Positions 22,010 to 41,829 are shown, counted from the stretch's first letter. The stretch: DNA of 64,000 nucleotides from an uncultured candidate division Zixibacteria bacterium (GCA_963735035.1 CAVTJJ010000002.1:100963-164962); one strand, 5' to 3'. A program made the numbers and translations. Notes: generated from the sequence alone by a model not told the origin.

Positions 22010-23041
22010 CTATTGGTCAGCCACACTGTCCAGAATCTGGGGGTATCGCTTGTCGATCCAATACAGCGAGGATAGCTCGCTGATACCACCGGTAAGATTA
22101 GTCTTAATGTGATCACCCGTACCGAGATCGTATAACCACACTCGTTTCCGGTCGTCCAAGACGCCTTCTACCTTTGTGTATACGTAAACCTTGCCATCGG
22201 GTGCAAAGCAGCCCGTATACAGGCGCTCCTTATCGCTGTCAACATCTGTCCAGACGCTGTCTCGGAGGCTGAGTATCCGCACATGTTGATCGCGGTCGAA
22301 TCCATCAGCCACAGCTATCTTCTCGCGATCCCGCGATATCGCCACCAGTACACCGCTGCACACTTGCCTCTTGTCACCGGTTGTCAGTGTTACAGCGTAT
22401 ACACCATGCTCACTGATGAGCACAGTGCTGTCTGTAAGAAAGAACCCCGTCGCGATCGGCCCCTGGTGAGTTGGCTCCTTCAACGATCCGTCGGCAACCA
22501 GAGTATCTACAGTTACGAAGTAATGAGTCACATCCTGAATAAGTGTGAATATTGAATCCAGACAGAAGATGCCTCGCTTATTGTTGAATCGCCCGCAGTA
22601 TAGGAGGTGGCCTGTTGTACGGTCACGGTCTATTGACCAGCAGGCAAATTCGGGGGTCGACAACTTGGCCTCAATAATAACTGCTGCCGACATAGGCACA
22701 TAGCGACCGACCGGTGCATCCGAAAGTGGGAGGCTATCCGCCGTCCAAAAACCCTCATAGCCAGCCTTGAGTACCGTGAATAATGAACCGCCCGCATCAG
22801 CGCATTGCATTTGCGCTTTTAGTTCTTTCGTTTCCCATGGAACGAGCTGCTGTCTACCGGTCGATAAATCCAAAGCCATTGTTCCGTGGGTAGTCGACAT
22901 AAGTAGTGTACCGCTGTATTGGGGCAAAGCTTCCGTCGTGCCAGTGGACTGACAACCCGTCTGGACTGTCATGCCGACGATCATCAGCAACACCCCACGC
23001 GACAGCATGCTTCGTCTACGAACTGTATTGTTCTCAGCCAT
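22010..23041 (-). CDS. Putative immunity lipoprotein, beta-propeller (TolB-like)
   Basis: Starts 10 nt after the RHS stop; lipobox-like QTGC; AISRDREKIA and FAPDGKVYVY blade motifs. Confidence 0.6.
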   Translation of the reverse strand: MAENNTVRRRSMLSRGVLLMIVGMTVQTGCQSTGTTEALPQYSGTLLMSTTHGTMALDLSTGRQQLVPWETKELKAQMQCADAGGSLFTVLKAGYEGFWTADSLPLSDAPVGRYVPMSAAVIIEAKLSTPEFACWSIDRDRTTGHLLYCGRFNNKRGIFCLDSIFTLIQDVTHYFVTVDTLVADGSLKEPTHQGPIATGFFLTDSTVLISEHGVYAVTLTTGDKRQVCSGVLVAISRDREKIAVADGFDRDQHVRILSLRDSVWTDVDSDKERLYTGCFAPDGKVYVYTKVEGVLDDRKRVWLYDLGTGDHIKTNLTGGISELSSLYWIDKRYPQILDSVADQ

Positions 23042-23051
23042 AAGAAGAGTC

Positions 23052-26000
23052 CTAAGGTTCCAGCGGTGGCATTCCATTCTCAGGATCATATGCGTCTATC
23101 TTGACTTCAGAGTTCCATCCCTTTGGCTTCTTGTCTCCTGATGCCTTCTGCGTTGGAGATTTCAACGTCTTGTCGCCCTTCAGAACTTTGAAATACAAAT
23201 TTGGCAGCGCCGGACCAGGAATCTCCGTAGGAGCGATCCCAAAGAGAATATAGATCGCCGCGTCAGCGCAATTGAATCCGAAGAGAGCATAAGCCGGGTC
23301 ATCGCCGCCATTCTTAATTTGATTGATACGATCCATGACTTTCTGGTCAAATTCGGCCGACGTCTCCCACATCTTTGCTTCGTCGGCTACATAGCCATTC
23401 TGAATCTGCAACTCTGCATCCATAATATCCTGCAACGGCTCTCCAAATCGTTGTACATCCAGATCTCCCCCTGTGTACAATGGGAAGCCATCCCCCCCTT
23501 TTCGCTCGAAGGACAACACCGTCCAGCCAGTGCGATCATTACCAACTGCTCCGAACATGTGACCTGCGCCGTAGGCCCTATCATGATCTATGAATAGTGT
23601 CACAGAATCACCTTGCCGATCCACGAACTTCACCGGGTTGTTCCGGCAGTAGACATACGAACCCGTCCCGGGATCCTTATACCACAGCGGGTCCGGTGAC
23701 GTGAAGATCTTCAGCGCCGGATCATAGTACCGCTGGCCGTAGTACGCAATGTCTCGGCCCAGCTCTTCGTCCAGATACTGACCCGTGTATCGGAAATTGT
23801 TCGCACTGGGACCGATCACTTTGCTGCTCAGCATCTCGCCCCACGGACGGTACAGGTTATGCGTCTTGACATTGCCGTTGTAACCGATCGTCGCCAACAC
23901 CGAACCGAGATGGTCGCCCACGTAATAGGCCACGTCCGTCTGAAGGCCGGCCTTGAACTTCGCAATCCGCTCGCCGTTGGCGTACACATAATTGCCATAC
24001 AGAGTTGTACTCGCTCCGGCCTTAAAATAGTCGCTCAACATATCGCCGCCAAGGTAATAATATCCCCACCGGGCCGTCTCCTTCTCCGGACACGGATACC
24101 AGTACCCCTCACCCCCGCCTCCGTCACCAGGAGTCTTACCATTTAGCGTTGGTGCAACCTTGGCACGAGGAGCCGCCTCCGACTCCAAAGACAAGGCATC
24201 GCGAGACCGCATCATAGAATCGAGAGTCGAGCCACCCGGAGGTCTCATCGACTGTCCCGAGACCGGATCGTCGTTGATTCCGGTCGAATCACCTTCCGCC
24301 CAGCACTGCATATCAAGGACTTCTTCCGTCTTCTTGGCTATTCGCTGACCTGACGTATTGTACCAGTAATGTACCGAATCCCGCAATACCTGCCCTTGCC
24401 TCACCCGACCGGCCAATTGTTCCGCATAATTGTACGACATGTCCATGTCTTCACTCTCGTAGCGGTAGATCGAGCCGGAGGGCATATACAAGAAATTGTC
24501 CGTGCTGCAGTTCAGCGAAGGCCCTATACATCTCACCTGATTGGTGCCGGGATAGTAACTGTAGCCCTGTAAGAGCAGGGAGTTGCTGGCGCGCCTCACA
24601 TTGGTTAGATTGCCGTTGCGATCGTAACCGTAGAGTTGCGCTGTCGGCGAGGGCAAAGTATTCCCGGTAAAGTCCTCGCCCGCCATGCGGTCCAGAGGAT
24701 CATAGGCGAACTTCTGTACCGTAGTTCGTACTCCTCCCGTCACGGCCGCATCGCTTACCCGAGCCGTATAAGAAGCGATGTTGCCATTGTAGTAGCCGGC
24801 AGGAAACTGAGACTGCGGTCCCGCATATGCGTTAGAGTTGTAGGTCAGTTCCAGACCAACATGATCACCACTACCGCTTTCGACATTTGTCACCTGACCG
24901 TCATTGATGCTTACCAGCCAGTCACGAGCATTATACTTGTAGTCGACTATCTGGGCGGTACCGGTGCTGCCGAATGCTTTCTTCCTGACCTGGCCGGTGG
25001 GCCAGTAGTCAAATTGGACTCTCATCGACGACACGCTGTCTGCCACCTGGGTCACCTGTCCGGCCCGGTTGTACGAGTAGTTGACGTACTTCTGGTTGGG
25101 GTATCTGACCTGGAGCTGCTGACCAATGCTATTGTACGTCATTGCGAAATCGCGCGTAATTGAAGCTGTATCGATACCACAAATGTACTGTTTCTTCTGT
25201 GCCACGCGACCATACGCATCGTAGACGTATTCCTCCCATGATGCCGAATCTGAGTGTCCAGACGCGTAGCTTACCGCCTTTGTGAGGCGGCCGCGACCGA
25301 ACTCTCCCTGGTCGTAGAAATACCGGGCTGTCACGCGGTACTCGGCCGTGTCATGCGTGGACGGACTAGGGTACTCCGGGATGAACGCATTGAACTGAGT
25401 ACGGTGTAATACACCCAGAATGACACCTTCTTCTACGGGTCGGCTATGCGGGTCGTACTTCATGTAATGGAATCTATTCGGATTATAGAAGCCGTCCGAA
25501 GCAGTCAGTGTGAATCTAGGGTTGCCATTCTTATCGTACAAATGCTCTTCAACGCCATAGTCCCCGGCCGAGTCTAACGTTAGCCAGCCGTGATTGTTGT
25601 AGTGACGGTGGATGCCTTGTTCCTCCGGCTGAACGACCAGCGTGTCGTTGCCGAAGAAGTTCTTGTAGAACTTCGTCGTTGTATACACATCCGCCGTGTC
25701 CAGCGGCACCAGCGCACCGTCGCAGACGTCGAACTTGAACCTCAGGTCAACATAACCCCAGGGCCCATAACCTTCAGGATAAGCGGCAATAAGAATTATA
25801 TAGTCGCCTGCCTTTACGTCGATCGCATTGTAATCCGTCCAGTCGCTCAACTGGCACATCCCACCCGCACCTGTTCGGTGAACTACCAAGGTATCATTTC
25901 GGTATACACTTGTATACAACGCCGAATCACAGAGTTCATCAGCGGCATCAAAATGAAATTTGCTTTCCACTTGAGCTACCTGTGGGCTCGGTTCGGTGTG

Positions 26001-40772: not shown

Positions 40773-41202
40773 ACAGCGGATTCGGAACCAGCAGGGGTTT
40801 TCGCTGGTCGAACTTCTGATTGTACTGGTCATTATTGGCATCATCGCCGGAATCGCTGTCCCCCGTTACATGGCGTCTACTGTCAAGGCCAAGCAAACAG
40901 AAGCCAAGGGTCTGCTTAATCAGATATACCTCTTGGAGCGGTCGCATTTTCAGACAAATGACGAATACTGGATCCCTGCCTCCGGTACCATGGCTAATAA
41001 AGAGAATCCCTTCGCATTCGATACCCTTGGCGCCGAGATCATGCCCTCGGCCAGGTACACTTATACTATTACCGGAGACCGGGATCATTTCCTGGTGACA
41101 GCGATTGCTGAAAGATTAGATGACGACCCGGCTATCGACCAGTGGGAAATCGACCAGACCGGTATGCTCCGAGCTGTTATCGACGACGCCATCGCCCGGT
41201 AA
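40744..41202 (+). CDS. Probable major pilin/pseudopilin
   Basis: QQG|FSLVELLIVLVIIGIIAGIAVP...KAKQTEAK. Confidence 0.88.
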   Translation: MSRSNIDRIRQRIRNQQGFSLVELLIVLVIIGIIAGIAVPRYMASTVKAKQTEAKGLLNQIYLLERSHFQTNDEYWIPASGTMANKENPFAFDTLGAEIMPSARYTYTITGDRDHFLVTAIAERLDDDPAIDQWEIDQTGMLRAVIDDAIAR

Positions 41203-41208
41203 GCCAGG

Positions 41209-41829
41209 TTGATCTACTATATAGCCAACTGGTCGCTGAAGTCTCTCAAACATGATCTGGGACCATTTACAGCCGCTTATCTGGCGCTTGATCTGCTGGC
41301 CGTAGCCGGGGCGGTTGGCGCTTGGTGTCTATACGGCGCATCATGGAAAGCTCTGATTACATTCGTTCTGGTGCTCTATGCGGTGCTGATCTCTATCACC
41401 GACTTCCGTTTTCAAGTCATTCCTGATCGCATAGTCTTGACGGGGATTGCTATCGGCATGATCGTCGCTGGGTTTTCAGATTATGTTAAACTTTCTGATG
41501 CTTTGGCAGGCGGAGCGGTTGGTCTTGCCCTCCTCCTTCTGATAGCTGTACTGGACGAACGGCTGCTCAAGAAACAATCAATGGGTGGCGGAGATATCAA
41601 ACTCGCGACCATGATAGGCATCTTTCTGGACTGGCAGAAGCTCGTGCTGGTTATCTTCTTGGCGAGTATACTTGGATTGGTCTTTGTGTTTGGCCGCAGA
41701 CCGTTCACTGGGGCTTCTTCAAAGTCCAACATCTCATTTGGCCCGTTTCTCGTCTATGCGGCTTTGATCGCATTCATCGCTGGAGACAAAGTGATCCAAG
41801 TCTACCTCAGTTGGTTCGGTCTTAGGTAG
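41209..41829 (+). CDS. A24 prepilin peptidase lacking the N-terminal Cys/Zn domain
   Basis: TDFRFQVIPD and MGGGDIKL aspartate motifs, FGPFL. Confidence 0.9.
   Translation: MIYYIANWSLKSLKHDLGPFTAAYLALDLLAVAGAVGAWCLYGASWKALITFVLVLYAVLISITDFRFQVIPDRIVLTGIAIGMIVAGFSDYVKLSDALAGGAVGLALLLLIAVLDERLLKKQSMGGGDIKLATMIGIFLDWQKLVLVIFLASILGLVFVFGRRPFTGASSKSNISFGPFLVYAALIAFIAGDKVIQVYLSWFGLR

Follow-up and report, generated by a model that had tools for sequence, protein, structure and literature searches.

In an uncultured, soil-type Zixibacteria bacterium (genome of 3.6 Mb, 97% complete), a gene for a giant RHS polymorphic toxin of 2749 amino acids (aa) lies beside a cassette of genes for a filament-building machine that resembles a type II secretion system (T2SS), and homologous cassettes elsewhere in the phylum are mostly found beside RHS genes as well. 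The sequence evidence leads us to propose, with a probability of roughly 55%, that this accessory T2SS-like type IV filament machine works with giant Sec-exported RHS toxins, most likely by carrying them out of the periplasm through the outer membrane, so that they are released or displayed on the surface. The DNA analysed here, called the window, comprises the final 64 kb of a contig of 165 kb, and the region in question occupies 21.6-41.8 kb of it. On the minus strand are an RHS core stub, a 359-aa open reading frame (ORF), the 2749-aa ORF and gspF, and the plus strand continues after gspF with genes for an ATPase of the GspE class, a secretin, three proteins (446, 169 and 154 aa), a further protein of ~460 aa, three pilins and an A24 prepilin peptidase. 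A first-pass annotation of this DNA had listed the 2749-aa RHS protein, its lipoprotein, the stub and 11 machine genes, and all of these ORFs are present where it had placed them.

Across 285 genomes of the phylum, the cassette-type secretin, taken at a cut-off of E <= 1e-50, was found with clean separation in 29 genomes, which belong to 21 of the 130 genera and 8 of the 20 families; neither of the two congeners has it. The flanks of these cassettes were annotated, on both sides where contigs allowed, with phmmer searches against the window proteins, a hidden Markov model of the RHS core built from 11 cores, Pfam and NCBIfam. The first-pass annotation had named, as one outcome that would speak against it, homologous clusters generally unlinked to RHS genes; the phylum shows the opposite, as 17 of the 20 assessable loci have an ORF with an RHS core within ~10 kb.

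RHS-core ORF within ~10 kb (17 genomes): G000, G036, G065, G072, G078, G086, G089, G116, G129, G147, G148, G179 (a fragment), G188, G007, G008, G016, G239
No RHS in view (3 genomes): G011, G280, G150 (cut on one flank)
Contig too short to judge (9 genomes): G053, G068, G099, G131, G181, G182, G006, G013, G204

The RHS gene follows gspF directly in six genomes and at a distance of 6-10 kb in two, lies at the pilin end in five, and otherwise stands beside the secretin in a rearranged variant of family f5 or after gspE in G239. Its position thus varies among loci, which means that the linkage survives rearrangement. The neighbouring RHS proteins are mostly 2475-2891 aa long, and ~1900 aa in the f5 variant. 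Altogether, the linkage spans at least three gene orders, three RHS N-terminal families and four taxonomic families with monophyletic secretin clades. Since RHS cores give roughly 250 matches in these 285 genomes of ~3.3 Mb, an RHS neighbour within 10 kb should rarely arise by chance.

Co-occurrence across whole genomes points in the same direction. The giants have only the shell and the core in common, and their N-terminal ~1700 residues differ by family: family A is that of the window, G036 and G086, family B that of most others, and family C (~1900 aa) that of f5. Searches with the first 700 residues found family A in 7 genomes and family B in 14, together 20 of the 285, and 17 of these 20 also have the cassette. 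An RHS core of any kind is present in 26 of the 29 cassette genomes vs 82 of the 256 others (108 of 285 overall). Further giants are often encoded elsewhere in cassette genomes, with five matches in G148 and two each in G188, G116 and G065.

As an independent sample, loci from metagenomes were scanned with the secretin alignment, as the alignment of the large minor pilin (K, described below) was too divergent for this purpose. Of 579 confirmed loci 80 were kept, and an RHS/YD or giant-like neighbour was counted on loci of at least 9 kb, as follows.

Secretin at least 50% identical to that of the window: neighbour in 4 of 4 loci
Secretin 30-38% identical with a full-length match: neighbour in 8 of 18 loci
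Secretin below 30% identical or with a C-terminal match only (PilB-PilT-PilC-pilin-PilQ type, the control): neighbour in 0 of 17 loci

Several observations weigh against the proposed partnership. The cassettes of G011 and G280 have no RHS gene in the 7-23 kb seen per side, and G150 has a cassette yet no RHS core genome-wide. A family A or B giant is found without a detected cassette in G144 and G187, both very fragmented, and in G123, where the match is weak. Moreover, G014, G015 and G017, which are estimated to be 100% complete and belong to the same genus as G016, G007 and G008, have family C RHS genes of ~1900 aa. Compared over the full length, their products share 48-54% identity with the cassette-adjacent RHS proteins of G016 and G007, yet none of the three genomes has a cassette near these genes or, at E <= 1e-50, a secretin of the cassette type. 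Thus, some RHS genes of this kind can persist without the cassette. The genomes are also kin, so that the counts overstate the number of independent events. Among the distant metagenome loci, 10 of 18 lack an RHS neighbour, and some of these have beside them a protease of the subtilisin type (L123, L128), a fibro-slime protein (L116) or a giant that resembles glycosidases (L129), so the wider family may be a general exporter. Finally, a folded RHS shell of ~300 kDa far exceeds the usual size of T2SS cargo, no discrete export tag was found in the giants, and the ATPase and secretin of the cassette score about equally against references from T2SSs and type IV pili (T4P). For the dedicated apparatus claimed in the first-pass annotation, a functional tie has strong comparative backing from the linkage (17 of 20), the co-occurrence (17 of 20) and the metagenome counts (4 of 4, and 8 of 18 vs 0 of 17). 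The homologous RHS genes in three complete genomes without a cassette, and the other exoproteins beside some distant cassettes, speak against a strict dependency.

The choice of the secretin as marker followed trials with gspF, the L-like protein and the major pilin. The L-like protein was too divergent, recovering 17 of the 285 genomes vs 29 by secretin. The major pilin has a paralogue in 268 of the 285 genomes, missed the cassette of G239, and has orphan close copies in three genomes without a cassette. These lone copies, of about 68-74% identity, are at G163:C4:126073-126480, G039:C61:148-558 and G184:C33:49513-49914; no further cassette gene was seen within ~10-30 kb of them, and none of the three genomes has a cassette-type secretin (the G184 contig ends ~10 kb past the pilin). 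Three ORFs considered as possible RHS genes, of 1872 aa in G011, 1809 aa in L137 and 654 aa in L122, gave no RHS evidence, and their loci were therefore counted as unlinked.

The genes of the region in the window, in order of position, are as follows.

21606..21902, minus strand: orphan RHS core fragment, 98-aa ORF (TIGR03696 match in a search of the own genome)
22010..23089, minus strand: candidate immunity lipoprotein, 359-aa ORF (likely start at the internal Met28; lipobox ...VQTGC in translation)
23052..31301, minus strand: giant RHS polymorphic toxin, 2749 aa (predicted signal peptide, RHS-type shell of ~2450 aa, N-terminal family A)
31604..32800, minus strand: GspF/PilC-type inner-membrane platform protein (Pfam T2SSF, E 7e-63)
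32837..34306, plus strand: GspE/PilB-class assembly ATPase, 489 aa (Pfam T2SSE, E 1e-128)
34326..36263, plus strand: secretin, 645 aa, the cassette marker gene (N0, STN-like and N3-type domains)
36260..37600, plus strand: GspL-like protein, 446 aa (AlphaFold model from a 17-sequence alignment, pLDDT 84.3)
37593..38102, plus strand: M-like bitopic protein, 169 aa (position, size and N-terminal transmembrane segment; conserved in cassettes)
38099..38563, plus strand: C-like bitopic protein, 154 aa (weak NCBIfam GspC_delta match, E 1e-3; conserved in cassettes)
38535..39917, plus strand: large minor pilin K, ~460 aa (predicted fold; the listed ORF starts at 38448)
39914..40273, plus strand: minor pilin, 119 aa, with PilV-like N terminus (N_methyl motif; NCBIfam PilV, E 9e-8)
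40254..40772, plus strand: minor pilin, 172 aa (N_methyl motif, E 8e-5)
40777..41202, plus strand: major (pseudo)pilin, ~141 aa from an internal Met (Pfam and NCBIfam; the listed ORF starts at 40678)
41209..41829, plus strand: prepilin peptidase (A24), short form (Pfam Peptidase_A24, E 1e-20)

Among the 11 machine genes, Pfam and NCBIfam bear out GspF, the GspE-type ATPase, the secretin, the peptidase and three pilins, and predicted folds bear out the L protein and the fourth pilin; the M-like protein has no family, and the C-like protein has its weak match. The gspF gene runs in the same direction as the RHS gene, 302 bp upstream of it, and its product scores 327 bits against NCBIfam GspF (cut-off 424) vs 298 against PilC, both under the curated cut-offs. 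The ATPase reaches 521 bits against NCBIfam GspE (cut-off 630) vs 488 against PilB, and in the Protein Data Bank (PDB) it matches PilB with 374 bits, GspE with 370 and PilT with 113. It lacks the long N-terminal region of PilB and matches positions 166-561 only of the PilB profile. The secretin has the Pfam Secretin domain (E 1e-44) together with GspD N0, STN and Secretin_N domains. In the PDB its best matches are to GspD (108 bits vs 98 for PilQ); in NCBIfam this order is reversed, and the score remains under the GspD cut-off (180 vs 351 bits). No cassette protein is better conserved than the major pilin: its copies in tier-1 cassettes are 66-78% identical to one another, and it shares ~50% identity with a housekeeping pilin that nearly all genomes of the phylum have.

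Two further machine proteins were recognised by their predicted structures. The 446-aa protein has no Pfam, NCBIfam or PDB sequence match, nor do six homologues. Its model shows, in one chain, an α/β actin-like cytoplasmic domain, a 75-residue transmembrane/coiled helix and a periplasmic ferredoxin-like C-terminal domain. In a Foldseek search, ranks 1-4 and 7 are the cytoplasmic domains of EpsL, GspL and PulL (TM-scores of 0.47-0.57 on the target), and PilM and FtsA rank after them, so that on its model the protein has the GspL layout. The model of K (pLDDT 86.8, pTM 0.83, 18 homologues) has a β-solenoid after the helix and head of a pilin. The top Foldseek match is Thermus ComZ (6qvi, E 8e-7, TM-score ~0.17), with ice-binding β-solenoids next; as modelled, K is a large minor pilin with a ComZ-like fold, and not GspK. 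The 169-aa protein has no Pfam or NCBIfam family, and three M homologues from other cassettes also have none in Pfam, but position and size suggest that it is M-like. Pfam searches with the L, M, C and K proteins of six other cassettes gave nothing usable.

As regards the class of the machine, GspE and GspF do not reach the curated equivalog thresholds of the T2SS, although their class as assembly ATPase and platform protein is clear. The secretin, with its GspD N0 domain and best PDB matches to GspD, agrees with a T2SS, as does the modelled L protein, which joins actin-like domain, transmembrane helix and periplasmic domain in a single chain as GspL does. No minor pseudopilin set with GspK was found, the GspK, GspI and GspJ families giving no match in Pfam or NCBIfam. 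An adjacent PilT, a split PilM/PilN pair and a long PilB, as in type IVa pili, are likewise absent from the cassette, and no retraction ATPase PilT is present in any cassette seen. Because the ATPase and secretin score about equally against both classes, the machine is called T2SS-like in architecture and not a canonical Gsp member. It shares with the canonical Gsp T2SS a secretin, a GspE-class ATPase, GspF, a fused GspL-like protein, small bitopic M- and C-like proteins, a short conserved major pilin, minor pilins, a prepilin peptidase and the lack of a retraction ATPase. In contrast, all its NCBIfam equivalog scores are under the cut-offs, M and C cannot be recognised from their sequences, a ComZ-like β-solenoid protein serves as large minor pilin in place of GspK, and the gene order is split, with F divergent from E-D-L-M-C-K-pilins. 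Similarly, the competence pilus of Thermus thermophilus has in ComZ a minor pilin with a large β-solenoid on a pilin fold, but it serves DNA uptake, the cassette has no other competence-specific gene, and the two structures superpose poorly, as the low TM-score indicates.

The RHS giant itself has the layout of RHS/YD polymorphic toxins, with a variable C-terminal tip behind the core domain. The RHS-associated core TIGR03696 lies at residues 2484-2564 (E 3e-19, NCBIfam), Pfam gives a single borderline RHS repeat (22.9 bits vs a cut-off of 22) where homologues show repeats more clearly, and by language-model features the first 1200 residues resemble RHS/YD clusters, mostly from Bacteroidota (0.90-0.94). 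A PDB sequence search with the giant returned no match. The N terminus is signal-peptide-like by a heuristic other than SignalP, and 15 of 17 giants have such a start as called, with one more from an internal Met. Directly after the signal peptide is an element common to families A and B and to distant giants, which looks like the start of the shell. The tip (residues 2565-2749, 185 aa) resembles TseH and IcsB-middle papain-fold families in language-model features (0.96-0.97); Pfam gives no confirmation, and a TseH/IcsB-type papain-like hydrolase is therefore a lead only. Tips differ among the homologues (HNH, LHH, SA1320-like, TseH/IcsB-like), and orphan fragments are seen as well, which is the pattern of polymorphic toxins.

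Downstream of the tip, the lipoprotein ORF and the RHS stub occupy the places expected of an immunity gene and an orphan module. The 359-aa ORF has no Pfam or NCBIfam family and, when read from the internal Met, contains the lipobox-like LLMIVGMTVQTGC; given its position after the toxin tip, it is a candidate immunity protein. The 98-aa stub has no Pfam family, matches the 2749-aa protein with a phmmer E-value of 7e-54, and is a displaced toxin-module remnant. In one distant metagenome cassette (L102:12811-16683), the secretin gene is separated from the L/M/C-like genes by three short ORFs with an RHS core, each with a small ORF behind it, so that an orphan toxin-immunity array sits within the gene cluster of the machine itself. 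The region had been said to hold, apart from the stub, only the giant, its lipoprotein and the machine; however, just before its start the window carries a full 1618-aa classical RHS gene (15804-20660, minus strand), with DUF6531, five RHS repeat matches, PF03527 and an RHS core. Unlike the giants, this protein has no signal-peptide-like N terminus as called, and it is encoded in a genome without a TssC match.

In agreement with the first-pass annotation, Pfam and NCBIfam find no PilT, VgrG, PAAR, Hcp or C-terminal domain of a type IX secretion system (T9SS) among the proteins of the region, and TssC, a component of type VI secretion systems (T6SS), has no match in the genome, so the giant does not have the setting of a T6SS Rhs effector. 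A PilT-like gene is present in the genome outside the cassette. The genome also has the T9SS protein SprA; the T9SS C-terminal domain (TIGR04183/PF18962) is absent from all nine giants scanned (that of the window and eight others), and neighbouring non-RHS proteins that were scanned do have a T9SS tail. Tc toxin cocoons (TcB-TcC) and T6SS Rhs effectors share the plan of an RHS shell, a core domain and then a variable toxic tip, and the total size, of ~2500 aa, is near that of TcB and TcC combined. In contrast to both, the giant has no SpvB or TcdB match in Pfam, no TcA-like gene in the loci, no PAAR or VgrG and no T6SS in its genome, and it has a predicted Sec signal peptide instead.

On the proposed partnership, the 2749-aa RHS protein would be exported by Sec through its N-terminal signal peptide and would fold in the periplasm as a shell around its C-terminal tip, a putative TseH/IcsB-like papain-fold hydrolase; the enclosure of the tip follows what is known of RHS and Tc shells. 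By analogy with the T2SS, the GspE-type ATPase on a platform of GspF and the L-, M- and C-like proteins would polymerise a short filament of the conserved major pilin, primed after A24 cleavage by the two small minor pilins and the ComZ-like β-solenoid minor pilin. This filament may then push or carry the RHS protein through the cassette's own secretin, and the periplasmic lipoprotein encoded downstream would, judging from its position, protect the producer.

One may argue that the machine builds a surface fibre instead, a T4P-like adhesin or contact organelle that joins cells, with the RHS toxin reaching the surface by a route other than this secretin and killing on contact; in a bolder form, the ComZ-like minor pilin would hold the toxin at the tip of the fibre. 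The modelled fold of K, akin to a pilus-associated competence pilin, the similarity of the major pilin to the housekeeping pilin of 268 of the 285 genomes, the near-equal scores of ATPase and secretin against PilB/PilQ and GspE/GspD, and the size of the RHS shell, which speaks against ordinary T2SS passage, all suit a fibre, and the linkage data are compatible with any functional partnership. However, the L protein has the fused GspL layout and matches EpsL, GspL and PulL best, not a split PilM and PilN, PilT is in no cassette, the ATPase is without the PilB N-terminal region, and no other outer-membrane route is evident in the loci, where neither a T9SS tail on the giants nor a T6SS or two-partner transporter was found. 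We consider a fibre of this kind unlikely. It is also quite unlikely that the cassette is a general T2SS that exports many exoproteins, with RHS as one frequent neighbour and cargo. This would accord with the RHS/YD neighbour in only 8 of 18 distant metagenome loci and the protease, fibro-slime and glycosidase-like genes beside others, with the FG-GAP/beta-helix exoprotein genes that flank several loci in the phylum, and with the persistence of RHS family C without a cassette. Yet only 29 of the 285 genomes have the cassette, and its distribution follows that of the giants, which would not be expected of a housekeeping exporter, and the scanned flanking beta-helix/propeller proteins have T9SS tails and thus an export route of their own. 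Adjacency without function, in which RHS genes and cassette merely share a variable region or hitch-hike together, is highly improbable: the region in the window is bordered by an integrase gene, a gene of toxin-antitoxin type and a Type ISP restriction system, an IS3 transposase lies between cassette and RHS gene in G036, and RHS genes are common in the phylum, but linkage that holds in four taxonomic families, with three RHS N-terminal families and gene orders of at least three kinds, and that is replicated in metagenomes with 0 of 17 in the control, already disfavours it.

The cassette also appears to be old. In a FastTree phylogeny of 26 secretins from the phylum and 8 from metagenomes, with the two other secretins of the own genome as outgroup, the cassette secretins form one clade far from the housekeeping secretins, within which the families f1, f2, f4 and f5 are each monophyletic (support 0.88-1.0). 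The first-pass description of a mobile tRNA island is not supported. The secretin tree follows the taxonomic families, ARAGORN finds no tRNA gene and Rfam no family in the whole window, and the sole ARAGORN call of the 165-kb contig is ~79 kb upstream of the window. Likewise, there is no G+C anomaly, the region ranging from 0.47 to 0.55 as does most of the window. From these sequences, old vertical descent with many losses fits better than a recently mobile island. Within f1, RHS neighbours of families A and B are interspersed in the secretin tree, so that the pairing of RHS protein and machine has changed. In a DNA comparison with the two congeners, the first 20 kb of the window gave short scattered matches only.

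The genome has a separate PilB-PilC-pilins-secretin cluster and a second, fragmented system, which makes the cassette an extra system. Elsewhere in the genome (G000:C4:1316481-1320672), in-frame TGA stops divide a second GspE-like ATPase gene into several ORFs, whereas the gspF-like gene behind it is intact; either the system is decaying or the stops reflect recoding or a fault of the assembly. In the cassette itself, gspF and gspE point away from each other, and only ~36 bp separate the two start codons (32800-32837). Each promoter must therefore extend into a coding sequence or into the other promoter, a hint that the gspF-RHS and gspE-pilin operons are tightly co-regulated. In G086, a 1440-aa fusion of Ser/Thr kinase, TPR, GAF and sigma54 activator is encoded between gspF and the giant RHS gene (L053:6891-11213) and is a candidate regulator of that locus. 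Around the region in the window are an ice-binding-like protein (8731-9801, minus strand) and large Fib_succ_major/thrombospondin-repeat and FG-GAP/beta-helix/dockerin exoproteins (42901-49384, minus strand). Relatives of the FG-GAP protein recur next to cassettes in G072, G078, G036 and G150; only that of G036 was scanned, and it has a T9SS tail. Further downstream (49981-60641, plus strand), 8-19 kb beyond the cassette, lies a defence-type cluster, which comprises a tyrosine integrase, a gene with a SocA/Panacea domain, a PLD-helicase pair and a restriction-modification enzyme of Type ISP.

The link between RHS toxins and T2SSs has precedents. According to Marutani-Hert et al. (2020, PMC7259588), the 1398-aa RHS-family bacteriocin Bcn-A of Xanthomonas perforans is active in the supernatant, and its activity is lost upon disruption of the T2SS secretin gene xpsD, so this RHS toxin is likely T2SS cargo. 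Bcn-A thus resembles the present case as an RHS-family antibacterial toxin tied to a T2SS; it differs in size, in its use of a housekeeping Xps system encoded elsewhere and in its phylum, whereas the RHS proteins here, of ~1900-2900 aa, are encoded beside an extra cassette of their own in which a ComZ-like minor pilin replaces GspK. In addition, the main text of a 2025 preprint (bioRxiv 10.1101/2025.05.08.652813) reports gspG within 5 kb upstream or 3 kb downstream of the Rhs families XRhs F VIII (Xanthomonas, 180 sequences) and RRhs F II (Ralstonia, 56); its authors predict translocation by the T2SS, state that the function is unconfirmed, and cite a prediction that the long Rhs proteins of Apibacter (Bacteroidota) use the T9SS. 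In these families, too, Rhs toxin genes are associated with a T2SS pseudopilin gene, but the main text reports the gspG gene alone and not a complete machine. In Zhang et al. (2012, PMC3482391), "T2SS" stands for the general secretory route, and the portion of the text consulted does not mention secretin, pilin, GspD or PulG. Searches of open full texts, which leave subscription journals aside, found no description of a complete accessory T2SS-like cassette coupled to RHS, no paper on type II secretion in Zixibacteria, and nothing relevant that joins type IV filaments and Rhs. The novelty suggested at first pass is overstated, as T2SS-dependent RHS activity and gspG-linked Rhs families are already published.

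How long signal-peptide RHS toxins exit Gram-negative cells that have no T6SS is an unsettled question, and a complete accessory cassette kept beside such toxins through rearrangements offers a concrete gene set with which to address it, as well as an annotation rule for hundreds of metagenome loci. If RHS proteins are indeed exported by the cassette, the cargo range of secretin machines would be wider and the list of delivery routes for polymorphic toxins longer. More tentatively, and somewhat short of an even chance in our estimation, the cassettes may represent an old, distinct branch of type IV filaments specialised to export or present RHS shells of ~200-300 kDa, possibly docked on the ComZ-like β-solenoid tip pilin. 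Such shells would then be the largest cargo known for a T2SS-type secretin, and Zixibacteria and other uncultured lineages without a T6SS would have a separate route for trafficking polymorphic toxins.

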